Shown here: one piece after another, positions 5,432-63,637 of the stretch
Layout: the number at the start of each line of letters is the position of its first letter
Numbering within the stretch: position 1 is the stretch's first letter
Source: an uncultured Candidatus Saccharibacteria bacterium
GTDB lineage: Bacteria > Patescibacteriota > Doudnabacteria > UBA920 > O2-02-FULL-48-8
Assembly (NCBI GenBank): GCA_964605735.1
Contig: CAZSDS010000001.1
Span: forward strand, 480,126-544,125
Direction of reading: 5' to 3'
Length of the DNA stretch: 64,000 nucleotides
The notes under the pieces: model-generated
Told to the model about the DNA's origin: nothing
Databases searched by the model: none
What the model saw: only the letters and a program-made list of their open reading frames with translations
Made by a program: the position numbers and the translations under genes

Positions 5432-6613
5432 ATGAAAATACTTTTCAACGGATACAATTTCGAAAGGAAGGGCAAACAGCTTCATTACGGAGGCCCTCGG
5501 AACTTCACAAAAAGACTGCTCAATTTCCTGGATAAAACCCCTCACAGTTATATCAGCTTGGTGATTGAAGGGAAAAAGGAAAAAAATGAGCGTTACTCCC
5601 TTTCAAAGTCCGCCAGAGGAAAAGGAATTTTTCTGAAACTTAGGCTGAGACTGAATACCCCTGATGTTTTTCTCGCAAAAAGCAAAGCCATGCCTGCCAG
5701 CCTCAACACGCCCATTAAAATCATCGGTAAAATAATCAGCGAGCAAAACCCTGACGCTGTCCTGCTCAATGGATACTCCATAGTCAACTGGATGATCCTG
5801 AGAGCGTGTAAAAATCACGGCATTCCGGTTGCAGTCTGCCATCACGGTTTGTGGTTTAAGGAAATCCAGGACGCATCCAGCAAAGTCACCAAAGCGGCAA
5901 TCCATATTATGCGCGAAATGGAAAAGGACGCCGCTAGGTTCGCAGACAAGGAAATTTTTCTAAACGAATTCAGCAAAAAAGAATTCAACCAAAAACTGGT
6001 AAAAACAGACGAATCTCGAACAACAATCATCCCGCTCCCGTACAACGATGTTTTTCACAAACCGGTAAAGCGACGCCCTGGCACTGAAGTAAAAATCGGC
6101 TTCGTGGGAAGATGGGACCCCATCAAAGACCCGCTCGCCTATTTAAAGCTTGCTGAATACGCTAAAAAGGCCGGACTACCCTGGCAATTCAGCGCGGTTA
6201 TGAAAATTTACGCCGAATACCCGGCGCTTCTCGCAAAAAAAGATGCCTTCCTTCAGACAATCCAGACCATCGAGCAGATGAAACCTGAAAAACTGCGGCA
6301 CTACTATGCGGAGCAAAGCCTGCTGGTAATGCCGTCGAGGTTTGACGTTTCCCCCACAGTGGTAATGGAATCTCTCCTCCAAAATACTGGAACATTGGTT
6401 TCGCCAAACGTAGGCTGGTCCACACTCTACAGGAAACTAGGCGCAGAAAAATGGATAATTGACTTCAAAGATCCGAAAAAAGTGGCAGACAGGATCAAAT
6501 ACTTATTGAAAGCAAAACCCCCAACCAAACTAATCAAATACATTAGAACCAACCACAGTCCGAGAAAAGTTTTCAGCGAGTATATCAAAGTATTAAGATC
6601 AATCCAGAAATGA
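5432..6613 (+). CDS. glycosyltransferase, GT4-like
   Basis: C-terminal half has KIGFVGRWDPIKDP ... LLVMPSRFDVSPTVVMESL, resembling the GT4 E-x7-E region. Stop overlaps the next GT gene (ATGA). Confidence 0.65.
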   Translation: MKILFNGYNFERKGKQLHYGGPRNFTKRLLNFLDKTPHSYISLVIEGKKEKNERYSLSKSARGKGIFLKLRLRLNTPDVFLAKSKAMPASLNTPIKIIGKIISEQNPDAVLLNGYSIVNWMILRACKNHGIPVAVCHHGLWFKEIQDASSKVTKAAIHIMREMEKDAARFADKEIFLNEFSKKEFNQKLVKTDESRTTIIPLPYNDVFHKPVKRRPGTEVKIGFVGRWDPIKDPLAYLKLAEYAKKAGLPWQFSAVMKIYAEYPALLAKKDAFLQTIQTIEQMKPEKLRHYYAEQSLLVMPSRFDVSPTVVMESLLQNTGTLVSPNVGWSTLYRKLGAEKWIIDFKDPKKVADRIKYLLKAKPPTKLIKYIRTNHSPRKVFSEYIKVLRSIQK

Positions 6614-7665
6614 GAATAGCACAATTAGTTTCAAACCTGCACCGTGTTCACCTGGCGTCCAACCAGGCAATTTACTCCCACACAGCCCGCTTGACCAACG
6701 GTTTAATTCGCCGCGGCAATGATGTGACGCTTTTTGCCTCCGGGGATTCAGAAAGCCAGGCCAAGCTTTATTCCGTCATAGAAAAAAATACGCACGCCTT
6801 GGGATTGGATCCGGACGACACCAGAAACTATAACCAATTGCTAATCTCAAAATGCTACGAAAACGCGGCAAATTTCGATATTATCCACTCTCATTACAGT
6901 TTATTAACCTCCTATTTCACTGCTCTGACCCGCACGCCTACAGCCCACTCCTTCCACAGTCCGATCCTGGAAAGGCAAAAACCTCTGCTCAGGCATTATA
7001 AGGACAAAAACTATATCTCTTTCTCGCTTGCGCAAAGAAAACAAATGCCTGAATTGAACTGGATAGCCAACATTTACCACGGCATAGACACGGAATACTT
7101 TGCTTATAATGACAAGCCAGAAGATTATTTGCTCTATCTTGGCAGAATAACGGAAGAAAAAGGCGTGCACTTTGCCATTGAGGCTGCCCGGGCTGCCAAT
7201 CTCAACCTTGTAATCGCCGGCCGTTCCTACCCAACCGAAAACTACTGGCATAACTATATCGAAAAATTCGTGGACGGGAAGACCGTCAACTACGTGGGAG
7301 AGGCTAATCTTGAAACCAAGCTCGGCTATCTGCAAAATGCCAAAGCCTTGCTATTTCCTACCCAATATGATGAAGTTTTTGGCCTGGTCATGGCAGAAGC
7401 CATGTCTTGCGGAACCCCAGTCATTGCCTGGAATAAAGGCTCGGTTCCTGAAATTGTCCAGGACGGCCACACCGGCTACATCATCAAAGACGTAAACGGC
7501 ATGGTCAAAGCCATACAAAACATAGATAAAATCAGCAGGCAGGAGTGCCGCAAACGCGCCGAATTGTTCTTCTCCATCGAGAAAATGGTTACCGGATATG
7601 AAAAAGTCTATATGCGAATAATCGAAGAAAACACTGCCAGACTGAAGAGCCAAAAAAATCCCTAA
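6610..7665 (+). CDS. glycosyltransferase family 4
   Basis: VTLFASGDS, LYLGRITEEKGVHFAIEAA, PTQYDEVFGLVMAEAMSCGTPVIAWNKGSVPEIV form a classic GT4 (RfaB-like) signature. Confidence 0.85.
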   Translation: MRIAQLVSNLHRVHLASNQAIYSHTARLTNGLIRRGNDVTLFASGDSESQAKLYSVIEKNTHALGLDPDDTRNYNQLLISKCYENAANFDIIHSHYSLLTSYFTALTRTPTAHSFHSPILERQKPLLRHYKDKNYISFSLAQRKQMPELNWIANIYHGIDTEYFAYNDKPEDYLLYLGRITEEKGVHFAIEAARAANLNLVIAGRSYPTENYWHNYIEKFVDGKTVNYVGEANLETKLGYLQNAKALLFPTQYDEVFGLVMAEAMSCGTPVIAWNKGSVPEIVQDGHTGYIIKDVNGMVKAIQNIDKISRQECRKRAELFFSIEKMVTGYEKVYMRIIEENTARLKSQKNP

Positions 7666-7677
7666 CGGGATTTTTTT
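7649..7677. terminator. bidirectional intrinsic terminator between convergent GT4 and GT2 genes
   Basis: Hairpin aaatccc-taac-gggattt flanked by A-run and T-run. Confidence 0.5.
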
Positions 7678-8405
7678 GTTAACAGCTTGCTGTAAAGTTG
7701 GGTGTAGTACGCCCGTTCCAGATCATAAGTGCCACTGCTGCGGTCAATTTTGTTCATTTGATCAGGATGAACCCGGTAAAGGCTGAGGTAAGAATCGATC
7801 AAATACAATTTTACCTTCTTGCTGGCGAGTTTCAGCCACATGTCAAAATCTTGCGTGCGAAGTTTAGGGTTCCAATACCCTGACTTCTCCACCGCCTCCT
7901 TTCGTAATGTCACTGTGCCATTTGGAATAAAGCACCTGTGCCATAAGCTGAAGAAAAGATCATGCTTCGGTTCATAATTGATGTTGTACTCCTTCAAGTC
8001 ATCAAAAAGCCGGTTATTCACGTCAATATACAAGAGTCGACCATAAGACCATAGCGCCTTAGCGCTCTGTTTATGGAAATTATAGCGAATCTGCAGGCTG
8101 GATAGCGGCAACATGTCATCGTCATCCAGAGGAACTATCAAATCTCCTTTTGCCCTTTTATATCCCACATTCAAAGCATCGCCTGCCCCCCAATTTCTTC
8201 GATTTTTTACGTATTTTATGCGTTTGTCTTTCCGGGCAAACTCTTTGACCAGCTTCTCTGTCCGGTCTGTTGAGGCGTTATCGACTATTATGTGCTCATG
8301 GGCAAACCCAAACTCTCTTTGGTTCTGCACGCTTAGGATGGTTTGTGGCAAAAAACTGTCAGCCCTGTTATGCGTCGGGGTCAAAACTGAAATTATATTG
8401 TTCAT
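7662..8405 (-). CDS. glycosyltransferase family 2
   Basis: N-terminus ISVLTPTHNRADSFLPQTILSVQNQ...HEHIIVDNASTDRT...VPLDDDDMLP carries the GT2 DxD signature. Confidence 0.85.
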   Translation of the reverse strand: MNNIISVLTPTHNRADSFLPQTILSVQNQREFGFAHEHIIVDNASTDRTEKLVKEFARKDKRIKYVKNRRNWGAGDALNVGYKRAKGDLIVPLDDDDMLPLSSLQIRYNFHKQSAKALWSYGRLLYIDVNNRLFDDLKEYNINYEPKHDLFFSLWHRCFIPNGTVTLRKEAVEKSGYWNPKLRTQDFDMWLKLASKKVKLYLIDSYLSLYRVHPDQMNKIDRSSGTYDLERAYYTQLYSKLLTKKSR

Positions 8406-8747: not shown

Positions 8748-10949
8748 ATGTACGTGTACGTCCCACGCTTTAATTTGTTGGGTTTGGTTAAAAGAATCAA
8801 ACCAACCAAGCATCTTCTGCTACCAGCGGCTGTGTTGCTGATGGCCTGCGCCATAATATTTGACATTTACAACCGTTCATTGCCTGATATAAGCAATGTT
8901 GCGGCCATTGGCCCTGTGTCTTCCAAAGTTTTGGATAGAAACGGGGTTTTATTGTATGAAATCCATGGCGAGACCAAGCGCACCCCGGTAGGTCTAAACG
9001 AAATATCCCCGCATCTGGTCAAAGCAACCATCGCCATAGAGGATGAAAGATTTTACGATCACCGCGGCGTATCCCTGATAGCAATTGCCCGGGCAGCGTA
9101 CGCCAACTACAAAGCCAAAGATATAACCCAGGGCGGCTCCACCATCACCCAACAGCTGGTCAAACTCACCTTGCTGACAAGCGAAAAATCATACCAGCGC
9201 AAGCTAAAAGAAGCAGTATTGGCCATAAAATTGGAGCGGGAGTACACAAAAGATGAAATCCTGGAGATGTATCTGAATCGCATCCCGTACGGACGAAACA
9301 CTTATGGGGCAGAGGCAGCCAGCCTGGCATACTTTGCCAAACACGCCAAGGATCTAACTTTGGCAGAGTCTGCTTATCTGGCTTCCCTGCCCAAAGCCCC
9401 ATCCCTGTACAGCCCAACCGGCGCCACCTCTGAGGAGTTGGAGCACCGCAAGAACCTGGTTTTGGACAAAATGGTCCAACAGGGCATGATTACCAAAGAA
9501 GAAAAAATTGCGGCCAGCCAGGAAAAGGTCGCGTTTACCCGCGGCAAAACAGAATTGGCTGCCCCGCACTTCGTACAATGGGTTGAGTCCTTGCTCATCC
9601 AGAAATATGGCCGCGACTATCTGGAGCAGGAAGGTTTGATTATCCAAACCACACTTGATTATGCCATGCAGTTGATAGCAGAAAAGGCTGTAGCAGACGG
9701 AGTGGAACGCAACCGCCGCCGGAACGCACATAATGCAGCGCTGGTGGCAATTGAACCGCAAACCGGATACATTTTTGCCATGGTTGGTTCAAAAAACTAT
9801 TTTGGCGTGCCGGAACCGGCAGGGTGCTCCCCTGGCGCAAACTGCGCCTTTGACCCAAAAACGAACATTGCTTTGTCCAACCGCCAGCCAGGCAGCAGCT
9901 TTAAACCATACACCTACGTCACTGCGTTTTCTGAACAATTTGGATTTGCACCGGGCTCACCCATCTTGGACAGATCTCAAAACTTCAGCAAGAACGCGGT
10001 TCCATACCGTCCGGTAAACTACAGCGGAAGGGAGTATGGACTGGTCTCAATGCGACAAGCACTGGCAGGAAGCTTGAATATTGCGGCGGTCCGGACGCTT
10101 TCCATGATTGGCGTGGACAGCGTGGTTAAAAACGTTAAAGCCATGGGCATCACCACTCCAATGGAAAGCTGCGGCCTGTCCCTGACTTTAGGCGCTTGCG
10201 AGGTTAAACTGCTGGAGCATGTAGCCGCCTTCTCTGTTCTGGCCAATTTGGGTGAAAAAGCTGATGTTACGCCACTGCTCAAGATCACAGACAAGCGTGG
10301 TCAGGTGCTGTACGAACACAAACCATTCAAAACCCGAGTCCTTAACGCCCAGGCCGCTTATGAAGTTGTGGATATAATGTCCGACAACCGCGCGCGCAGT
10401 TATATTTTCGGGAGCCGTTCACCTCTGGTTTTACCAGACAGAAAAGTTGCAGCAAAAACCGGCACCTCGCAGGACTTTAAGGACGGGTGGACAGTTGGCT
10501 TTACTCCGCAGATTGCCGCAGGAGTCTGGGTGGGCAACAACGACGGAAGGCTAATGCGCAACCAGTCAGACGGCGTGGTGGTCGCCGCCCCTATTTGGAA
10601 CCAATTCATGAGGGAAGTCCATAAAAACCAGCCAGCCCTGGATTTTGAGGCACCGAGCGGCATCCAGAGGGTCAGAATCAGCAAACATTCAGGGAAGCTG
10701 GCCACTGAACATACACCAGACGCAGTTATGGAAATTTTTGCAGATTATGCCGTGCCAAAACAGCGTGATCCTTACGTACCATCACCGGTGCTGGTGGTTG
10801 ATGAGCTGCCTGACATAGGTGGAAGCAATGAGCCTCTGCCCGGGGAAGCAACCCTACCTACCTGGGCAGAAGAAGCCAGGCAAATACTCAATTCCCGCAG
10901 GGACCAACAAAGCACAAGCCGCCGTCCACAAACCAGCAATGACAGCTAA
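8748..10949 (+). CDS. penicillin-binding protein 1A family (bifunctional transglycosylase/transpeptidase)
   Basis: GT51 motifs EDERFYDHRGVS and GGSTITQQLVK. Transpeptidase motifs include SSFKP-type SxxK, SxN and KTGT. Confidence 0.9.
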   Translation: MYVYVPRFNLLGLVKRIKPTKHLLLPAAVLLMACAIIFDIYNRSLPDISNVAAIGPVSSKVLDRNGVLLYEIHGETKRTPVGLNEISPHLVKATIAIEDERFYDHRGVSLIAIARAAYANYKAKDITQGGSTITQQLVKLTLLTSEKSYQRKLKEAVLAIKLEREYTKDEILEMYLNRIPYGRNTYGAEAASLAYFAKHAKDLTLAESAYLASLPKAPSLYSPTGATSEELEHRKNLVLDKMVQQGMITKEEKIAASQEKVAFTRGKTELAAPHFVQWVESLLIQKYGRDYLEQEGLIIQTTLDYAMQLIAEKAVADGVERNRRRNAHNAALVAIEPQTGYIFAMVGSKNYFGVPEPAGCSPGANCAFDPKTNIALSNRQPGSSFKPYTYVTAFSEQFGFAPGSPILDRSQNFSKNAVPYRPVNYSGREYGLVSMRQALAGSLNIAAVRTLSMIGVDSVVKNVKAMGITTPMESCGLSLTLGACEVKLLEHVAAFSVLANLGEKADVTPLLKITDKRGQVLYEHKPFKTRVLNAQAAYEVVDIMSDNRARSYIFGSRSPLVLPDRKVAAKTGTSQDFKDGWTVGFTPQIAAGVWVGNNDGRLMRNQSDGVVVAAPIWNQFMREVHKNQPALDFEAPSGIQRVRISKHSGKLATEHTPDAVMEIFADYAVPKQRDPYVPSPVLVVDELPDIGGSNEPLPGEATLPTWAEEARQILNSRRDQQSTSRRPQTSNDS

Positions 10950-10976
10950 AAACCCGATCCAGTGATCGGGTTTTTA
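10948..10976. terminator. bidirectional terminator shared by PBP1A (+) and msrB (-)
   Basis: Hairpin aacccgatc-cagt-gatcgggtt followed by TTTTTATTT. The msrB stop codon lies within the T-run. Confidence 0.5.
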
Positions 10977-11372
10977 TTTCTTCTCAAGCAATAAACAGGC
11001 AGAGTTTATACAATATCGCTTACCGCCCTTATCAGGCGGGCCATCGTCAAACAAGTGACCTAAATGAGAACCGCAGTTTTTGCATACCACTTCAGTGCGG
11101 ACCATCCCATGGCTGTTATCTTCATGCAATTCTATGTTTTTTAAATTTACCGGATCCGTAAATGACGGCCAGCCTGTTCCGGAATCAAATTTGGTTTCTG
11201 AAGAAAACAATTCCTGTCCGCACGCCGCGCATTTATACATCCCTTGTTCGTGTGAATCGTAATACTTGCCCGTGAAAGGAGCCTCAGTCCCCTTTTCCCT
11301 TAAAATTTTATACTGCTCAGGAGTCAGCTGTTCCTTCCACTCCTGTTCAGTTTTGGGTTTCTGCATTGTCAT
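10974..11372 (-). CDS. msrB: peptide-methionine (R)-S-oxide reductase
   Basis: CAACGQELF...GWPSF...[16 protein letters not shown] is the SelR/MsrB zinc and catalytic signature. Confidence 0.9.
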
Positions 11373-11668: not shown

Positions 11669-11823
11669 TCACACCTCACTGGATAATTCCGCGATTAGGC
11701 AAACTCATATTACCAACCCGCATCCGGATTTCCTATGGACACTAAACGCAGGCTTAAGCAATTTTATTTGGTCATTTCAGACAACAAAAAACCCGCCCTT
11801 GTGGGCGAGTTTTCAAGGTTTAT

Positions 11824-12450
11824 TTAACGCCTTTTTGCAAGAAACACGGCCACAACAGACACAGCAACAGCAATCATGCTTAAGAACAAAGAATCGTCGT
11901 ATTTTTTGGATTGTTCAGTTTGCTGAACTGTGGGAGCAGGATCGCTCAAGTCATCTATGACTTTAGTCTGGCTGGCTGGACCGAATTGGGAAAAATCAGA
12001 TGAGCCGTCGGTATTCTTGGGTTGCTCCTGGTTTGGCGCCAGCTCCCAGGCAACTACAGTCCCATCGCGGTAGGTCTGGTAAGCTTTCCACAACAAAGTT
12101 GACTCCTGGCCCGGTACTTTGGCGCTGAAAGTGAAATCGTCCCGGAAATTGGCTGGGATACTTCCGCCAGTCCAAATAACTTCCTTCACGACGTTTCCGT
12201 GGTCACCTTCCCCTTCCTGCACAAGTCTGATGTTCCATCCTGGTTTTACCGTTGGGGATACGTGCTCCAATCCTTCCGGTACCACAAGTCTTATGCCAGT
12301 GGTTGGCATATCCTTTTCGCTAGGAACGGAAATAGAAAATGTTTGGAACGAACCAACTCCAGCTTCGCTCGGTTTTACTGTAACATGGGCAGAAGCTGAT
12401 CCGGCTATAAACAAGGCCAAGACCGGCAAAATTGCTATGATTTTTTTCAT
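11824..12450 (-). CDS. YcnI-like (DUF1775) putative copper-binding surface protein with C-terminal TM anchor
   Basis: Signal peptide, then mature N-terminal His (SASAHVTVKP...), which is the YcnI/DUF1775 hallmark. C-terminal hydrophobic anchor and KRR. A terminator hairpin with an A-run lies at ~11786-11815. Confidence 0.6.
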   Translation of the reverse strand: MKKIIAILPVLALFIAGSASAHVTVKPSEAGVGSFQTFSISVPSEKDMPTTGIRLVVPEGLEHVSPTVKPGWNIRLVQEGEGDHGNVVKEVIWTGGSIPANFRDDFTFSAKVPGQESTLLWKAYQTYRDGTVVAWELAPNQEQPKNTDGSSDFSQFGPASQTKVIDDLSDPAPTVQQTEQSKKYDDSLFLSMIAVAVSVVAVFLAKRR

Positions 12451-13004
12451 TTGTTTCTCTTTCTTAATTTGCTGAATAGCTCATATACAATTATACCAGA
12501 AATAATTACAGCGCCACCAATAATGTAGTAATTCCGCAAAGAATTGTCTGCTTCATCAGCTGCCTGCTGGACGGGAGCTGTTGCGGACTCGCGGTCCACA
12601 CGGACATCATAATCAAGCCTGAAATCTGGATAGTAATCAGCCTTTGAACTGCCCTGCAGGGTAACCACATACAGACCGCGGCGCGGGAAGGTATAATCCA
12701 CGCGCGAAACATTAACCCCCCAATCCGGGGCTTCGTCTTCCGGCGTCAGTAATCTATCCACCAGAACCTCACCACCAAGTTTTATGGTCACCTGGCACTC
12801 GCAGTCAGGAAAAGTGAATTTTTCCGCCTTGTCAGTGACTGAAAAATATAACTGAGCTGGTTCACGGGCAATTGGATCGTCTTCCGGATCCCTATGGAGC
12901 AAAATCTCCAGCGTGCCAGTTGTTTTAATTTCATGCGCACTGCCTGCGTAAGGCAAAAACGCGAGCACTGCAAGCAAAACGGAAAGAAAAATTTTCTTCA
13001 TCAT
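12447..13004 (-). CDS. secreted protein with predicted N-terminal His after signal peptide and a C-terminal TM anchor (CopC-like / His-brace candidate)
   Basis: Signal peptide ...AGSAHEIKTTG gives a mature N-terminal His. C-terminal TM plus KLRKRNK. Overlaps the YcnI-like gene by 4 nt (operon). Confidence 0.5.
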   Translation of the reverse strand: MMKKIFLSVLLAVLAFLPYAGSAHEIKTTGTLEILLHRDPEDDPIAREPAQLYFSVTDKAEKFTFPDCECQVTIKLGGEVLVDRLLTPEDEAPDWGVNVSRVDYTFPRRGLYVVTLQGSSKADYYPDFRLDYDVRVDRESATAPVQQAADEADNSLRNYYIIGGAVIISGIIVYELFSKLRKRNK

Positions 13005-13017
13005 TTATTTCCTAAGA

Positions 13018-13632
13018 TTATTCTTCCAAAAATGCCACGACTATGAATCTTTTAAAAGCCGTACCAATCGGATAAGAAGTTTGCAAAGTTAATTGTTTTT
13101 TTGAAAAGTCCTGGTTGAGCACACCCAGGTCTGAGGGGCTGATTACTTTGGTTTCTGCGGCAGCGTACTTATATATTTTGCCCTGCGGATCGCTTATTTC
13201 AATTATATCACCTTGCTTTATTTTCGGAAGAAGGGCAAAAACCGTTTTGTAGTTTCCTGGTGCAGTTGGAAAATCTGACGAGTGTCCAAATATATAAACA
13301 TTACCCGGTTCTCCGGGATGAGCCGTGTTCGGATAATGCACCACCCCGTTCTGCAGTGCCTTCTGGAAACTGTCTTCGTCTTCGTCATCCGTGTAGACCA
13401 CCGGAGCTGTAATTCCAAGCGACGGTATGCTGATCCGGTCAGGCTCGCCGCTTGGCTCAAGCTCTTCAGTTTCCGTTGAGGACGGCTGGACTTGCGGCGG
13501 ATCCAGATAATATTTGACTTGGACGTACAGGTACTGCCAATTGAGAACAGAATAAACCAAAACAATCGCAGCAATCAGCTTAAGTCCAATTTTCACATGT
13601 TTCATAAAATCATAATAACCCGGACCAAACAA
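13018..13632 (-). CDS. sortase-family transpeptidase homologue with the TLxTC cysteine replaced by Ser (TLQTS)
   Basis: N-terminal TM anchor. IFGHSSDF (catalytic His region), LTLQTSYP where sortases have TLxTC, and a downstream FKRF Arg. The Ser codon was checked on the reverse complement (tct). Confidence 0.8.
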   Translation of the reverse strand: MFGPGYYDFMKHVKIGLKLIAAIVLVYSVLNWQYLYVQVKYYLDPPQVQPSSTETEELEPSGEPDRISIPSLGITAPVVYTDDEDEDSFQKALQNGVVHYPNTAHPGEPGNVYIFGHSSDFPTAPGNYKTVFALLPKIKQGDIIEISDPQGKIYKYAAAETKVISPSDLGVLNQDFSKKQLTLQTSYPIGTAFKRFIVVAFLEE

Positions 13633-13670
13633 AAATACCAGCTAATTGCTGGTATTTTCGTGTTTGCAAG

Positions 13671-16600
13671 TTATGCTTTCTTTTTTCTTCCGAATAGCGG
13701 AATGAGGCCAGCCGCCGGAATGACCAGCATCCATGATAAGGCAAAACCCGTTCTAGGAAGAGTTTTACCCTCAGGCTCTGCTTCCGTGCTTTCCCCGAGA
13801 ACTAATCCCTGTTGGTTATTGCCACCATCTGTGGATGGAGGAGGTGGAGGAGTTGGTCCCCCGCCGCCACCGCCAAAAGTGGTGATACAGTTTGCGGTAC
13901 AGCCGCCTTGTGAAGTATTCCTGACACCGAAATCTCTCTCAACATGATCATCACTGTCAACAATAACATCATGCTTAGCCTCTGGTGTTGGGAAAATTAT
14001 TTCCCAATCTTGGCTTTGCAACACCAACCTCACTGTATAAGAACCATCAGCAAGACTGACGAAGCTATATGGCGAGGCAGTAACATCGCTTGGCTCATCC
14101 TCGTCATGCACGCCGTCATTGTCCAAATCAAGGTACACCAGCCAGTCAGACAAAGAATTTTCAGGAGTCATTTCATCCTCTTCCAAAGTTCCGTTGTTGT
14201 TTGCATCATTGTAGACTGAGCCGCTGATGGAACCTGGGGTATCCAGCGGTCCACAATCCTCGCCTTCACAACCGCCGCCATCATCCCCGTCCCCGCAGTT
14301 TTCGCCGCGGCATGGTTCAGAGCTGGTTGAATGGTTACCAAAGTCATAGCCGAAGAATTCATCACCAGCCAGCAGATTAATTGAATGGTAATCATTTGGC
14401 TGAGGATAGGTCTGCTCCCATCCGTCCTGTGGAACCTCAAAAATCAAAACATTTCCAACTGATCCATCCAAAGTCAGAGTGTAATCGCCACTGAGGTCCG
14501 TAACGTCATAAGCGAGGACTTTATAAATCTTGACCTGAAGACTGCCGCTGTTGTCGCCGTACCAGCCTGGGTTGATTGTGTTCGTGTCAGGATTGCCGTC
14601 AAAGACTTTGAAATTCAATGAGCCGCCGCCTGTGGAATGCAGTCTGTAATAGTCATGGTCAGCGACGAACGAACCCCAGTCAACGAAATTGTTGTCCATT
14701 TGCAGGTCAAGCAAATTCCAGTAGTCGTTCAAACCAAATACGGTCCAGGCAGGATCGCCGTCCATGCCTGCGGTTGCAAAACCGTCATAACTGTTGTATT
14801 CAGCGTCCACTGTGTCTTGTCCGTTGCGGTTAAGCCATGTCCCTGAAACGTGGATAAAGTACTGACCAGCGGCCAGAGCCGGAGAATCTACTCCGTCCTG
14901 ATCCTGCGAATCAACCGCAAAGTCTGCAACCGGTGTTGGATCAACAGCAATAATGGTCCAACCTGGGAGCCCACCCTCATCAGAAGTGCCGTCTGGCAAT
15001 TCTCCGTCTTTGTCTTTGTCATTCCACTTCATTCCGGAAACTGTTTTTTCACAGGTTAGGTAGTGAGCCTGCACTGCGTCAATGTCAAAGCCATCAGCAT
15101 CAGCTGCGTTATTAAGGCCAAAGTTGGTGCTGTCAGTAAGCATGACGTATTTAAACCAAGTCAGGCCACTGCCTGAAATATCAATGCCAGTTGTGCCAGA
15201 AGGTTTGCTTGAAGCAACCCCTACCTGGACCCAACCCACTCCATCCTGGCTGATTTTTACCTGCGCCTGCTCTTCAGGATAGGAAGCTCGACCATTTGTA
15301 ATTTCATATATGGTCAGGTCTGCGCCGGCCCCATCAACAACCATTCCCCCAAAACCCAAAGTGATGCTTCCGCCTTTACCCAAGCTGTAAAACATGCCTT
15401 CAGCCGGACCATTTGGCGCGCCGAGCACATCTGAACTGTCAGAGCGTGATGCCAAAACAGGCGTGTTATTTTTGCGCAAACCTTGATTCTCTCCCAGAAC
15501 GTCAGTTGCCCAAGTTGAGGTGATTACGCAAGGTTCAATGAGTTCAATTTCTTTATTGACTACGTTGAAGGTTTCCGTAGGCTCATCCACTTCAACCGGA
15601 CCAGTGCCGCTAACCAATTCCCAGCCTTCTTCCATCAGTTCGCTGAGGTCATATTCTCCCAATGGCACTTTCTGGAAAGTTACACAACCATTCTCACCAG
15701 TTATACCCATGTAACCTTCATAAATATCAACGGTCAAAAAATCGCTGTTATCTGCGTACTGGTCATCCAGGATGCGGAATTTCATCTCAGAACCTGGGTG
15801 GGACACTGAAGTGTGATAAATATGGCTCGGATTGAACTCTGAACCCCAGTCTGTGAATGATTCATTAATCTGGATCCCCAGCCAACCTGTGTGCGGATTA
15901 GAAAAATCGTTGACTCTTACCCATGGAGCATATGGCCCGCCATAAACAGTATCCGATTCCAATCGCTTGGAGTAGGCCGCGTCAGAAACGCTGGCATCAG
16001 GATCGCTTGGCCTATAAGTGTATTCACCGCTGGCCCTGACCACATAATTACCGGCTGGCAAAGAACCTGATAAATAATTTGTTCCGTTCGGATATACCTG
16101 CACTGTGCCAACGTGATCACCCAACAGGAACATGGTCCAGCCTGGCAATGCGGTATTTTCAGAAACTTCCGTATCGTACTTGCAGATTGTAACTGTTGAA
16201 CTGCAATACTCATTCTGCAAAACTACATTGTCCAAAAAACTTCCAAATGAATCAGCTGTCCCCGCTTCACGGAACTCCAGTTTGCTGATGCCGTCAATTC
16301 CTACAACTGTCACGGTTTCGTCTGACCAATCAACGCCTGCCTGCCCCTCCCTTGTCACGGAATGAACTTCCACGCCGTTCCAGAACACTTTCAGGATGCT
16401 GGTAGCGCCTGCGTTCCCCGGTCTAGGAGAGTATGCAAATGCCAGTTTGTAATCAACACCTTCTTGTGTAGGAATGTTTTGATAAAGCGAAATATTTGCT
16501 GGTTCGCCTGAGGTGCTAGAAGCTGGCCCGAACCAGTCAGCATCCATTTCAGCATGCTGCACGCCATCTGCTGAGGTCCAACCATTTACTCCCTTGTGCA

Positions 16601-17525
16601 ATTCCAGATTGGCGATTGCAGGTTTGGTGTCGCTGTTAAAGCTGGGGCCTACGTCAGCAGTCCATTTTATCACCCATCCCATGCCGGGCGTACCGCTTAG
16701 GTAAACATCCCAGTTCTGAGATGAGGTAACGACTGGAAATTCAAAACTGCCGTTAACAACCATATTCTGTCCGCAAGGAACGACTTCGTTTGTCGGCTCT
16801 TCAGGTTCTTCAGGCTCTTCCTCAACCAAGGTGTTTGTAAACGTACAGGTGACCACCTCATTGGCGTTCAATTCAATGATTGCTGATCTATCGGCTAGAT
16901 TTACCTCAGAGTTGCTGTCATCACATACAATCGAACTCAGTACTGAATTTTGCGAAGCATCCTCAGTGACATGATACGGTACACTATTTTTTTGAGAATT
17001 AGCCGGGACATTTTCAAATACAATCTGATTGCTAAATGTGTCATCTACACCGCCGTCATCATCAAGAATAAAGGAACTTGGAATAAGTTTTGGGGCAGTG
17101 AAATTAAAATCCTGGCCATTGTCAGGCACCGTATCTTTTACGATTATGATTGTTCCGTATTCGTCTTCACAATCTTTTTTATTATTTGCCTCGTCGTAGC
17201 AAGGATAGCCTTCGTTCTCTTCCTGCGCATTATCTTCTCCTTTTTTATCCTCACACTTGCCGTTATCCGAATGGTTTTCGCATTGCGGACCGTTGTCTTT
17301 CCCGTTGTTGCCATCATTCCCTTGGTTTCCATTGTCTGGGATATCAAACCTGTTGGCATTCATTTCTTCGGCGTAAACCGTATTTGGGAAAACCGGGACC
17401 AGCAACTGAACCACCAGAGCCAAAACCGCAAAACCCGCCAAAATCGACTTGATTTGGCTGGTTTGGGTCCCATGGCTCCTGCGGTATTTAGAAATTGAGT
17501 ATTTCATATACTTTCTTAAGACCAT
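13671..17525 (-). CDS. giant cell-surface protein (1284 aa) with LPRTG sorting signal; Ig-like/SdrD-B-like and internally repeated domains; putative adhesin
   Basis: N-terminal signal peptide. C-terminus ...LPRTGFALSWMLVIPAAGLIPLFGRKKKA is LPXTG, a hydrophobic segment and a basic tail. Contains a Cys/Gly/Asp-rich linker, an SdrD-B-like segment (KWNDKDKDGELPDG) and two homologous ~200-aa repeats. Confidence 0.9.
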   Translation of the reverse strand: MVLRKYMKYSISKYRRSHGTQTSQIKSILAGFAVLALVVQLLVPVFPNTVYAEEMNANRFDIPDNGNQGNDGNNGKDNGPQCENHSDNGKCEDKKGEDNAQEENEGYPCYDEANNKKDCEDEYGTIIIVKDTVPDNGQDFNFTAPKLIPSSFILDDDGGVDDTFSNQIVFENVPANSQKNSVPYHVTEDASQNSVLSSIVCDDSNSEVNLADRSAIIELNANEVVTCTFTNTLVEEEPEEPEEPTNEVVPCGQNMVVNGSFEFPVVTSSQNWDVYLSGTPGMGWVIKWTADVGPSFNSDTKPAIANLELHKGVNGWTSADGVQHAEMDADWFGPASSTSGEPANISLYQNIPTQEGVDYKLAFAYSPRPGNAGATSILKVFWNGVEVHSVTREGQAGVDWSDETVTVVGIDGISKLEFREAGTADSFGSFLDNVVLQNEYCSSTVTICKYDTEVSENTALPGWTMFLLGDHVGTVQVYPNGTNYLSGSLPAGNYVVRASGEYTYRPSDPDASVSDAAYSKRLESDTVYGGPYAPWVRVNDFSNPHTGWLGIQINESFTDWGSEFNPSHIYHTSVSHPGSEMKFRILDDQYADNSDFLTVDIYEGYMGITGENGCVTFQKVPLGEYDLSELMEEGWELVSGTGPVEVDEPTETFNVVNKEIELIEPCVITSTWATDVLGENQGLRKNNTPVLASRSDSSDVLGAPNGPAEGMFYSLGKGGSITLGFGGMVVDGAGADLTIYEITNGRASYPEEQAQVKISQDGVGWVQVGVASSKPSGTTGIDISGSGLTWFKYVMLTDSTNFGLNNAADADGFDIDAVQAHYLTCEKTVSGMKWNDKDKDGELPDGTSDEGGLPGWTIIAVDPTPVADFAVDSQDQDGVDSPALAAGQYFIHVSGTWLNRNGQDTVDAEYNSYDGFATAGMDGDPAWTVFGLNDYWNLLDLQMDNNFVDWGSFVADHDYYRLHSTGGGSLNFKVFDGNPDTNTINPGWYGDNSGSLQVKIYKVLAYDVTDLSGDYTLTLDGSVGNVLIFEVPQDGWEQTYPQPNDYHSINLLAGDEFFGYDFGNHSTSSEPCRGENCGDGDDGGGCEGEDCGPLDTPGSISGSVYNDANNNGTLEEDEMTPENSLSDWLVYLDLDNDGVHDEDEPSDVTASPYSFVSLADGSYTVRLVLQSQDWEIIFPTPEAKHDVIVDSDDHVERDFGVRNTSQGGCTANCITTFGGGGGGPTPPPPPSTDGGNNQQGLVLGESTEAEPEGKTLPRTGFALSWMLVIPAAGLIPLFGRKKKA

Positions 17526-17747
17526 AATTGTTAAAAAAGCCCAGGTTTTTCGAATAAAAAAAGCCCTTCCAGGCTCCTGTTCCCTTTATTTCAAAATAAG
17601 TATAACGGGAGCAATAAACGCAGTCAACGTTTGTACCTTAAGTGGTTAATGACACCATAAACTGACTAAAAATCCAAATTATTACGCCTTGCTCCCTCAT
17701 ATGTTTCACCTATTCCTATTTTAACGGCCTGCCGATATATTTTCTCC

Positions 17748-18556: not shown

Positions 18557-19846
18557 TCAACTCTCTGAATTTTTGCTCTCCGGTTTTTTGCGGCCGCGCC
18601 TGAAAATGTTCGCGGCCGCCCCGCCAAAAAACTCCCCTGTATAATCCCGCCCTTTTTTCAACAGCTGGTAAAGTGTCGGCATCCTCCCTGGATCATATAT
18701 TTCGGACCAGGGATTTTTTCGTCCCCTCACCAAATCAGTCAGCAACATGGCGGTTATTCCTGAATAAGTCATGCCGTTTCCGGAAAACGCGGTCCCAACA
18801 TACTGGTCCGGATATGTCTGCCCTATCAAAGCCAAACCATCACTGGGCTCCAGGATCGGCCCATTCCATTTCCTGGTGATGCGGTATTCAATCCCCGAAA
18901 AAAACTCGGCCAGATAATCCTCCAGCGCCTTAAAATTCTTTTCCTGGTCCATTTTAATTTCCTTCCTGTGGTCCTGTCCGCCAACGACCATCCTGTCATG
19001 TCCGCCGTCAACCGCATCCACACGGAAATAATTGTAAGGATTGTCATCATCCCAGTATATCGCCTCCGGCAAAATTCCCTGGGGAATCTCCGCCTCAAAA
19101 ACGTAGCTGACATACATACCCTTTTTGAAATATGTTGGACGCGGATTGTTGAAAGGCTGATAAGTGGTGACAATCAGCTTGCCAGCGCTGATTTTCCCTT
19201 CGGGTGTGCCAACCTCCCAGCCATTTTCAGTTTTCTCAACGCTAACAGCTTCCGAATTCTCGTAAATAACAACACCCTGCTGGCTTGCTTTTTCAGCCAA
19301 TTGCCACAAAAATTTCAGCGGATGAAACTTGGCCTGGTCCTTGGTTTCCATAACTCCGTAATTTTTGAACTGAAACGGATTGGTTCGGTGCAGATCCACT
19401 TCAAACCCCATTTTCCTGGCGGTCGTATATTCTTCCTCAAGCTCCTCCAGCCCGTCTTTGCTGATTGTATAAACATAAGCCGAACAGCGCATAAATTCGC
19501 AATCCAGTTTTTCGGCTTTGATAATATCTTCCAGTAAATCAATTGCCTCGCCATGCGAATCCCACACCAGCCGGGCATTTTTAGGCCCATACATTTTTAC
19601 CAACTCCCTGAGGTCTGTGTCTATATCCTGAGTGATAAAAGCCGTGGTATATTCAGTTGCCCCAGACCCGATTTGATCCCTTTCCAGGACAGTGACTTTC
19701 AACCCTTCTTTGTTCAGCAAATATGCAGTCAAAATGCCGGCCAGTCCCCCGCCGACAATAACAACATCCGTTCTTTCTTTACGGGTAAGTTTGGGGTAAT
19801 CCTTAATCCTCTCATTTTTCCATGTTGGCTGTTCTCTTATGCTCAT
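18557..19846 (-). CDS. FAD-dependent oxidoreductase (DAO family)
   Basis: DVVIVGGGLAGILTAYLL is a Rossmann dinucleotide-binding motif. Length and layout fit the DadA/glycine-oxidase-like family. Confidence 0.8.
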   Translation of the reverse strand: MSIREQPTWKNERIKDYPKLTRKERTDVVIVGGGLAGILTAYLLNKEGLKVTVLERDQIGSGATEYTTAFITQDIDTDLRELVKMYGPKNARLVWDSHGEAIDLLEDIIKAEKLDCEFMRCSAYVYTISKDGLEELEEEYTTARKMGFEVDLHRTNPFQFKNYGVMETKDQAKFHPLKFLWQLAEKASQQGVVIYENSEAVSVEKTENGWEVGTPEGKISAGKLIVTTYQPFNNPRPTYFKKGMYVSYVFEAEIPQGILPEAIYWDDDNPYNYFRVDAVDGGHDRMVVGGQDHRKEIKMDQEKNFKALEDYLAEFFSGIEYRITRKWNGPILEPSDGLALIGQTYPDQYVGTAFSGNGMTYSGITAMLLTDLVRGRKNPWSEIYDPGRMPTLYQLLKKGRDYTGEFFGGAAANIFRRGRKKPESKNSES

Positions 19847-52494: not shown

Positions 52495-54251
<1,757 letters not shown>

Positions 54252-54261
<10 letters not shown>

Positions 54262-58321: not shown

Positions 58322-58409
58322 TGGCGGAGAGGGGGGGATTCGAACCCCCGATACCTTGCGGTAAACTCGCTTTCCAAGCGAGCGCACTAGGCCACTATGC
58401 GACCTCTCC
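58322..58409 (-). tRNA. tRNA-Ser (anticodon GGA), 88 nt with long variable arm and encoded CCA
   Basis: Reverse complement: GGAGAGG..GCA-TAGTGGCCTAG-TGC..CTCGC-TTGGAAA-GCGAG-variable arm (TTTACCGCAAGGTATC)-GGGGG-TTCGAAT-CCCCC-CCTCTCC-G-CCA. Confidence 0.85.
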
Positions 58410-63130: not shown

Positions 63131-63522
63131 AAATTTTTGTTAATGGATTTTAATCATAAATCTAGTATTTGAGATCGTCAATCCCTAGCTTGTGGACAAA
63201 AAAGACCGCGCACGGCGCAGTCTAGCATAGGCCACATAAACAATGCCTACTAACCACAGAACCACACCGAGTATTGCACCCCACCTTGCACCACGAATTG
63301 CATCTGGGTTAGTGTCGTCTCACATAACACCTCCTTAATTTTGGTGATATTCAGGGGTAGCAAAAAGCCAAGCATTAGTCAACGCTTGGCTGGAAGCAGA
63401 TATATGTCTAAAAATGTCCGAATTGGATGGCGAGCAGTTCGTCCAATGAGGACGTTGTGAGTTCCACGTCCGAATGGACGACTGCGAGCCTCTAATACAA
63501 GCATTTTTAGGCAAATTAAAAA

Positions 63523-63637
63523 CCCCGCACTGCCTACTTTCCCATCAGTCTTACACTGAAGTATCATGAGCGGTCTTGCGTTTCACTTCTGAGTTCGGGA
63601 TGGGATCAGGTGGTGCCACAAGCCTTGAAGCACGGGG
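63523..63637 (-). rRNA. rrf: 5S ribosomal RNA
   Basis: Reverse complement contains CCACCTGATCCCATCCCGAACTCAGAAGTGAAACGC, matching the universal bacterial 5S loop B/C region. Terminal helix CCCCGTGC/GCAGTGCGGGG pairs. Followed by a T-run. Confidence 0.8.

Follow-up and report, generated by a model that had tools for sequence, protein, structure and literature searches.

The 64,000-nucleotide window analyzed here, a stretch of contig CAZSDS010000001.1 from an uncultured Candidatus Saccharibacteria bacterium, encodes a sortase homolog in which a serine (Ser177) occupies the position of the catalytic cysteine, and the gene for this protein follows, on the same strand, the gene for a 1284-residue surface protein that ends in an LPRTG sorting signal. 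Judged from the sequences of its relatives, such serine-for-cysteine sortases appear to form a large conserved clade that is restricted to bacteria of the Candidate Phyla Radiation (CPR) and coupled to LPRTG surface proteins. We consider it probable, at roughly 0.6, that the window protein is an active sortase which uses serine as its nucleophile and anchors the adjoining LPRTG protein. The clade as such is probably an undescribed serine-based form of sortase rather than an error or a dead gene.

The earlier note on this DNA had proposed a sortase homolog with a transmembrane anchor and with the catalytic histidine and arginine in the expected order, and profile searches, alignments, and a structure model all bear this out. 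The protein matches the Pfam family Sortase (PF04203) with an E-value of 1.2e-24 and 86.8 bits (cut-off 26.6), and it passes the general NCBIfam sortase model TIGR01076 (sortase_fam; 56.4 vs. a cut-off of 39.35). In phmmer alignments with sortases of solved structure, Ser177 falls on the catalytic cysteine of both Clostridium perfringens SrtD (4D70; “tlqtSyp” vs. “tivtCtn”) and Actinomyces oris SrtC2 (8T28; “tlvtCtp”), the histidine of IFGHS aligns with the GH motif, and the arginine of FKRF aligns with the catalytic arginine. The AlphaFold2 model, based on a 65-sequence alignment, has a predicted local distance difference test score (pLDDT) of 94.5 and a predicted template modeling score (pTM) of 0.88. 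It places His108 just past a strand at residues 101–106, Ser177 at the end of strand 170–178, and Arg186 at the start of strand 185–193, with N-terminal helices (residues 2–34) ahead of them. With an E-value limit of 0.001, Foldseek returned 118 PDB matches, and every one of the 50 listed is a sortase (classes A, C, and D); the best superposition of the core was with 4D70 (root-mean-square deviation of 2.4 Å over 139 columns, 32% identity).

Several hallmarks of the sortase superfamily are therefore recognizable in the protein. The histidine of the xGH motif at the end of strand beta4 is the invariant His108 of IFGHS, the threonine before the nucleophile is Thr176, the arginine opening strand beta8 is Arg186, an N-terminal hydrophobic helix (approximately residues 5–29 in the predicted topology) can serve as a membrane anchor, and the adjoining 1284-residue protein offers a cognate substrate of the LPXTG type. 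The defining catalytic cysteine of TLxTC, the mark of a cysteine transpeptidase, is absent, with Ser177 standing in its column and no cysteine anywhere in the protein. The window protein is a sortase-fold homolog (PF04203, MEROPS C60 fold) and not a canonical cysteine sortase. It also reaches no curated NCBIfam class (D, E, C, F, or GN), with scores far below the cut-offs for class D (NF033746, 56.6 vs. 165; NF058671, 59.1 vs. 140), class E (NF033747, 43.9 vs. 160), class C (NF033745, 42.5 vs. 160), and class F (NF033748, 37.5 vs. 166). Because the TLxTC cysteine is missing and no class cut-off is reached, the protein fits, by these sequence criteria, no curated class and belongs to neither class D nor class E.

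The gene lies on the reverse strand. The earlier note had placed it in an open reading frame (ORF) spanning positions 13018–13632, and this ORF is present, with a translation containing NVYIFGHSSDF and KKQLTLQTSYPIGTAFKRFIVVAFLEE. Its start codon, however, was revised: the TTG at 13632 sits in the U-tract of an intergenic hairpin, and a homolog that is 99% identical (P0001) has 195 residues, so that translation probably starts at the ATG at 13605 and gives a protein of 195 residues. The residue numbers used throughout (His108, Gln175, Thr176, Ser177, Arg186) count from this ATG. The serine of TLQTS is read from a TCT codon, as the earlier note had stated (Table 1).

The serine is conserved far beyond this genome. 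A word-indexed search of 5.8 billion proteins yielded 1005 matches, and all of the 120 best (47–99% identical) carry serine within a nearly invariant motif, L-[TS]-[LVI]-Q-T-S-Y-P-x-G-T. HMMER, run exhaustively against 1.84 billion cluster representatives, gave 6807 homologs, with 121 at E ≤ 1e-30. The homologs pooled from both searches comprise 230 with serine, 36 with cysteine, and 2 that are truncated. Conservation within the lineage, which the earlier note had raised as a check, is thus answered by the closest relatives: serine is found in 230 out of 230 (31–99% identity, from many independent assemblies), in the motif L-Q-T-S-[YW]-P, and none of these proteins has alanine, glycine, or threonine in this column. 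Across 81 loci the residue is encoded by TCT (31), TCC (19), TCG (18), TCA (14), and AGT (1). Since all TCN codons as well as AGT are in use, synonymous codons appear to drift freely and selection to act on the amino acid. The AGT codon occurs in one genome (L076:8477), and a switch between TCN and AGT at the nucleophile needs a cysteine or threonine intermediate or a double substitution.

When one genome per GTDB species was scanned, 175 genomes were found to encode a relative; the scan used serine-containing peptide patterns and so covers the serine clade only. The named carriers belong to the CPR/Patescibacteria, including Doudnabacteria, Uhrbacteria, Yanofskybacteria, Kazan, and the “Patescibacteria group,” and the few labeled “Gammaproteobacteria” or “Binatia” are probably mislabeled bins. 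Purifying selection extends to the other catalytic positions, with His108 invariant in the serine and cysteine clades alike, and Thr176 and Arg186 retained in 227 and 229 of the 230 serine-clade proteins (the remaining protein has a gap at position 186). When representatives of 50%-identity clusters are compared, the median pairwise identity is 49% in both clades, and 18 columns are conserved at ≥95% in the serine clade vs. 19 in the cysteine clade. This equal conservation argues that selection on the serine clade is not relaxed. The catalytic domain is free of cysteine in 197 of the 230 proteins, and the whole protein in 161, the window protein included. The only recurrent cysteine, at position 103 in 23 of the 230 sequences, lies on the opposite face of the histidine strand. 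An alternative cysteine nucleophile was considered and rejected, as the window protein has no cysteine and Cys103 faces away from His108 by strand alternation. In three longer predicted proteins, P0121 (517 residues), P0132 (919 residues), and P0147 (673 residues), the serine-sortase domain is located at the C-terminus, which may mean that the domains are genuinely fused or that gene calling ran on from an upstream substrate gene.

The nearest cysteine sortases share a median identity of approximately 40% with the serine clade in the catalytic domain, carry the motif [I/M/V]-T-C-[T/W/Y]-P-x-G-T, and, where named, are from CPR lineages (Andersenbacteria, Saccharibacteria, Peregrinibacteria, Gracilibacteria, and the Parcubacteria group). 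The two groups have GHSS, Glu77, His90, Gly-Asn102, Tyr147, Pro179-x-Gly-Thr, and Arg186 in common. Clade-specific positions, defined as those conserved at ≥90% in the serine clade and different in the cysteine relatives, include position 175, which is glutamine in all 230 serine-clade proteins and isoleucine, methionine, or valine in 35 of the 36 cysteine relatives. Among 113 further cysteine relatives, none has glutamine two residues before the cysteine, and all have I, M, V, L, or F. Position 178 is Tyr/Trp in the serine clade vs. mostly Thr in the cysteine relatives, position 104 is Tyr/Phe vs. mostly Val, position 127 is Pro vs. Asp or Glu, and position 183 is Ala vs. Ser or Asn. Position 111, the last residue of GHSSD, is aspartate in 222 of 230 serine-clade proteins, whereas 32 of the 36 cysteine relatives have asparagine, glycine, or another residue. 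The window protein carries every clade-specific residue (L-Q-T-S-[Y/W]-P-x-G-T, GHSSD, and Tyr/Phe104). From the alternation of side chains along a beta-strand, Gln175 would point to the same face as Ser177, and Tyr104 would be oriented like His108, which makes Gln175 and Tyr104 plausible active-site neighbors.

A neighbor-joining tree built without the clade-specific columns contains one split that holds 33 of the 36 cysteine proteins and none of the 230 serine proteins. The three long-branch cysteine proteins on the serine side (P0202, P0238, and P0265) carry isoleucine or methionine and not glutamine. On this tree, the switch between cysteine and serine looks like essentially one ancestral event.

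The adjoining protein, which the earlier note had taken as the presumptive substrate of the sortase, ends in LPRTG followed by 19 hydrophobic or small residues and the basic tail RKKKA, and the proposal holds up. Its domains include a Pfam SpaA_4 match, weak SpaA and SdrD_B matches, and a weak match to the NCBIfam choice-of-anchor C model. Neither another credible sorting-signal protein nor a second sortase is encoded in the 64-kb window. The peptide VLGESTEAEPEGKTLPRTGFA is a candidate test substrate for the enzyme.

This pairing recurs in related genomes. Among 81 serine-sortase genes from 80 related loci, 60 have a gene directly upstream on the same strand that encodes an LPxTG motif, a hydrophobic segment, and a basic tail, and the motif is LPRTG in 53, LPVTG in 4, and LPKTG, LPTTG, and LPGTG in 1 each. 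In 52 loci, the window included, the upstream proteins are homologous and fall into a single cluster, and two that were checked with Pfam contain DUF11, SpaA_2, and SdrD_B folds. The sorting signals of these partners share an extension just before LPRTG, commonly (Q)VLGA-[T/S]-x-E (loci L003–L080; e.g., L007:466–3003 and L015:3342–7898). They are far more stereotyped than classical LPXTG signals, and X is almost always arginine. Glu77 is present in 53 of the 54 enzymes paired with LPRTG and in 3 of the 7 paired with other motifs (Fisher p = 3e-4, uncorrected for approximately 135 positions and for phylogeny), a hint from sequence covariation that Glu77 may contact the substrate arginine in direct recognition. 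In L040, L055, L062, and L064, all with non-Arg LPXTG neighbors, residue 77 (positions ~13375–13377 in the window) is Gln, His, or Asp instead of Glu. In another locus (L001, DASPNG010000088.1), the serine sortase is directly preceded by a homolog, similar at the C-terminus, of the FAD (flavin adenine dinucleotide)-dependent oxidoreductase encoded at 18557–19846 in the window, which suggests that the substrate gene may have been inserted or lost between the oxidoreductase and sortase genes in related genomes.

An LPxTG gene is absent within ±8 kb of the sortase in 19 loci. In most of these, the sortase gene is located right after a murG-like gene (approximately 11 loci by C-terminal similarity, and 9 by clustering, with ftsW upstream); in 3 loci it follows uvrA, and hrcA-grpE-dnaK often comes after it. 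The loci with ftsW-murG, part of the dcw cluster and involved in lipid II synthesis, include L018, L023, L028, L030, L047, L052, L054, L066, and L073. No conserved third partner gene was found among the recurrent neighbors, which are hrcA, grpE, dnaK, murG, ftsW, uvrA, and a gene for a CAP-domain protein. Neither the 64-kb window nor the ±8-kb surroundings of the sortase in the 80 related loci encode a cysteine sortase. In L018 and L024, where the sortase gene is duplicated in tandem, both copies are of the serine type. When the 113 further cysteine relatives were compared with the contigs carrying serine sortases, the candidate shared contig (6382 bp) turned out to be a separate contig with a cysteine sortase only.

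If the enzyme is active, the adjoining 1284-residue protein would be exported via Sec and retained in the membrane through the hydrophobic segment and RKKKA tail at its C-terminus, and the membrane-anchored, extracytoplasmic sortase would bind LPRTG. His108 would then act as the general base, and Ser177 would attack the Thr-Gly bond to form an ester acyl-enzyme, with Arg186 and Thr176 in their usual transition-state and positioning roles. The amine of a peptidoglycan precursor may resolve the acyl-enzyme; peptidoglycan is made, as the window encodes a class A penicillin-binding protein (PBP) with transglycosylase and transpeptidase domains (8748–10949, forward strand). Gln175, Tyr104, Asp111, and Tyr/Trp178 may tune the active site for nucleophilic attack by a hydroxyl. 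For the serine branch as a whole, widespread in the CPR, we put slightly better than even odds on LPRTG cleavage and transpeptidation via an ester acyl-enzyme that is enabled by Gln175, Tyr104, and Asp111.

Several points weigh against an active serine transpeptidase. Oxo-esters aminolyse less readily than thioesters, and transpeptidation could be disfavored for this reason. With a single ancestral switch, the clade-defining substitutions do not represent independent covariation with the serine, and they may reflect specificity for the substrate arginine rather than the chemistry of the nucleophile. The absence of a cysteine sortase extends only over the 64 kb of the window and 8 kb to either side in the related loci. 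In Staphylococcus aureus SrtA, the C184S substitution strongly cuts activity (summarized in PMC4827206), and the same variant has served as a cysteine-less background for spin labeling (PMC5578623). A serine is therefore not automatically competent in the sortase fold.

The impaired C184S variant and the restricted range over which cysteine sortases are absent would also fit a non-catalytic pseudo-sortase, which binds LPRTG as a chaperone, retention factor, or display regulator without cleaving it. The surface protein would then be anchored by a cysteine sortase encoded elsewhere or would stay membrane-anchored, and cysteine sortases close to the serine clade do occur in other CPR lineages. 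Moreover, the synteny and the hint of an association between Glu77 and residue X need binding only, not catalysis. Pseudoenzymes, however, usually lose or vary their catalytic residues, whereas His108, Thr176, Ser177, and Arg186 are essentially invariant among the 230 proteins under a constraint equal to that of the cysteine clade, and the serine is never swapped for alanine, glycine, or threonine. The substrates also retain a full cleavable signal, Thr-Gly bond included, and neither the window nor any of the 80 loci of approximately 16 kb contains a cysteine sortase. We regard a pseudo-sortase as unlikely, and conservation and synteny, as read from the sequences, favor an active enzyme.

The same conservation arguments would apply to an active serine hydrolase, a sheddase or maturase in which Ser177 and His108 cut LPRT/G and water resolves the ester, so that the surface protein is freed. 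Oxo-ester intermediates lean to hydrolysis over aminolysis more than thioesters do, which would favor this outcome. The placement of the gene right after murG and ftsW, genes of lipid II synthesis, in approximately 9–11 loci speaks for the cell wall instead, and so do the substrates, which resemble adhesins, have Ig-type folds (DUF11, SpaA, SdrD_B), and are of a kind typically anchored to the wall. Serine-based PBPs transpeptidate efficiently, and a serine nucleophile thus does not preclude transpeptidation. Release of the surface protein seems somewhat less probable again than mere binding. A sequencing or assembly error, which the earlier note had allowed for, or a recent inactivating mutation (TGT to TCT) in a normal cysteine sortase can be rejected: cysteine is just one C-to-G transversion away from the TCT codon, but serine stands in QTSYP across 230 relatives, in five different codons, and the window protein has Gln175 and the other clade residues.

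Table 1. Features of the sortase locus and its surroundings, with positions in the window.
Feature	Position	Strand	Basis
Serine-type sortase gene, 195 residues (probable start)	13018..13605	-	Pfam, AlphaFold, Foldseek, homolog P0001; mechanical ORF reaches TTG 13632
TCT codon of Ser177, catalytic-cysteine position	13075..13077	-	Sequence; aligned to Cys of 4D70 and 8T28
CAC codon of His108 (IFGHSSD), equivalent of catalytic His	13282..13284	-	Aligned to GH of solved sortases
Codon of Arg186 (FKRF), equivalent of catalytic Arg	13048..13050	-	Aligned to Arg of 4D70 and 8T28
CAA codon of Gln175, two residues before Ser177, specific to the serine clade	13081..13083	-	
GAT codon of Asp111 (GHSSD), enriched in the serine clade	13273..13275	-	
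N-terminal membrane anchor, approximately residues 5–29	13519..13593	-	Hydrophobic stretch KIGLKLIAAIVLVYSVLNWQYLYV; AlphaFold helices 2–21 and 23–34
Gene for 1284-residue secreted surface protein, presumptive substrate	13671..17525	-	ORF; signal-like N-terminus
Sorting signal: LPRTG (13746–13760), hydrophobic FALSWMLVIPAAGLIPLFG, basic tail RKKKA	13674..13760	-	Sequence
Promoter-like site upstream of substrate gene	17599..17627	-	TTGACT-17-TATACT, 10/12 consensus matches
Intergenic hairpin (11 bp) and U-tract between substrate and sortase genes	13632..13658	-	-24.8 kcal/mol, z -4.9, 0/200 shuffles
Two closely packed same-strand genes downstream of sortase	11824..13004	-	13-nt gap, 4-nt overlap
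Terminator-like hairpin ending apparent four-gene unit	11787..11814	-	12-bp stem, 6 GC pairs, T-run

The substrate and sortase genes appear to open a four-gene unit that is delimited by a promoter-like site and a strong terminator-like hairpin, for which the evidence is at the level of consensus only (Table 1). The hairpin between the substrate and sortase genes is possibly an attenuator or partial terminator that lowers expression of the sortase relative to its substrate. The two downstream genes encode a 185-residue protein with no family match and a 208-residue DUF1775 protein (E = 5.5e-26), and in the neighbor clusters of the related loci this pair is not associated with serine sortases. 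Each protein has a histidine after a signal-like “SA” (SAHVTVKP and SAHEIKT), a C-terminal transmembrane segment, and a basic tail; in these sequence features they resemble a small exported metal-binding pair, which would be unrelated to the sortase. The wider neighborhood holds envelope and redox genes, including the class A PBP, MsrB (SelR; 10974–11372, reverse strand), and three glycosyltransferase genes (5432–8405). Elsewhere in the window there are a full-length LOOT RNA (Rfam RF03000; 50934–51055, forward strand; 96.3 bits vs. a gathering threshold of 46.4), a structured RNA whose function is not known, and a cobalamin riboswitch (RF00174; 180–297, forward strand; 34.4 vs. 31.5) directly upstream of the ORFs at 288–773 and 814–2475. 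A 5S rRNA is located near the window end (63522–63637, reverse strand), and the rRNA operon may continue past it. The tRNA genes are tRNA-Asn(GTT) at 54187–54261 and tRNA-Ser(GGA) at 58322–58409, both on the reverse strand.

By definition and in their classification, sortases are cysteine transpeptidases, and both their inhibitors and “sortagging” rest on the thiol. A search of the full-text literature, with most subscription journals outside its reach, found no description of natural serine sortases. If the proposed activity is real, it would make this sortase, as far as the literature found shows, the first exception in a family of cysteine enzymes. A serine clade with intact LPRTG partners poses the question of whether a hydroxyl can serve as nucleophile in the sortase fold and through which second-shell changes, for which Gln175, Tyr104, Asp111, and Tyr178 are the candidates. 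An active form would provide a thiol-free, and so oxidation-insensitive, enzyme with a defined LPRTG specificity, and would show how CPR bacteria, which depend on attachment to a host, display their large adhesin-like proteins. If inactive, the protein would represent a pseudo-sortase, likewise undescribed, that has a dedicated partner and is unusually well conserved. A survey of CPR protein families records a sortase family for over half of the CPR genomes and does not mention the nucleophile (PMC6744442). In either case, counts of CPR “sortases” such as those given there merge two chemically different groups.

Several known systems resemble the serine sortases in part. The closest cysteine relatives, the cysteine-type sortases of the CPR (e.g., P0226, P0208, and P0243), have [I/M/V]-T-C-[T/W/Y] where the serine clade has Q-T-S-[Y/W], and they also differ at positions 104, 111, 127, and 183. 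Their gene contexts differ as well. In the three that were examined, two sortase genes are located after rplJ-rplL near mraZ and one lies among other cell-envelope genes, and none has an adjacent LPxTG gene. Among solved structures, the best sequence match is the class D enzyme CpSrtD (4D70; E = 2.5e-11, 32% identity). Like the window protein, it has one anchor at the N-terminus, a GH motif, a short distance between the nucleophile and the arginine, and proline in the segment that follows the nucleophile. CpSrtD, however, has TIVTC with cysteine, whereas the window sortase has TLQTS with glutamine at -2, and the sorting signal in the window is LPRTG and not LPxTA, the type listed for SrtD in NCBIfam.

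The fold and the order of histidine, threonine-nucleophile, and arginine are shared with S. aureus SrtA (His120, Cys184, Arg197), as is the substrate layout of LPXTG, hydrophobic segment, and basic tail. SrtA acts as a housekeeping enzyme: it has many substrates and accepts any residue at X. In contrast, a serine-clade enzyme is usually paired with one adjoining substrate in which arginine is nearly fixed at X. The two also differ at the nucleophile, as SrtA works through a thiolate and a thioester and is strongly impaired as C184S (PMC4827206), whereas serine is natural and conserved in the serine clade.

With respect to chemistry, peptidoglycan transpeptidation runs either via a serine ester, in the D,D-transpeptidases (PBPs), or via a cysteine thioester, in the L,D-transpeptidases. 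Since both occur in the construction of the wall, a serine nucleophile is compatible with transpeptidation in which an amine resolves the acyl-enzyme. The likeness to PBPs is a mechanistic analogy only, as the folds are unrelated, there is no homology, and the Ser-x-x-Lys chemistry of PBPs differs from a His/Arg site. Rhombosortase and its GlyGly-CTERM targets (PMC3237569) combine a serine-nucleophile sorting enzyme with a C-terminal tripartite signal and a dedicated enzyme-substrate pairing, all of which recall the serine sortases of the CPR. Rhombosortase, however, belongs to the intramembrane rhomboid proteases, whose fold is unrelated, and its signal and mechanism are different from those proposed here for the serine sortase and its LPRTG partner.

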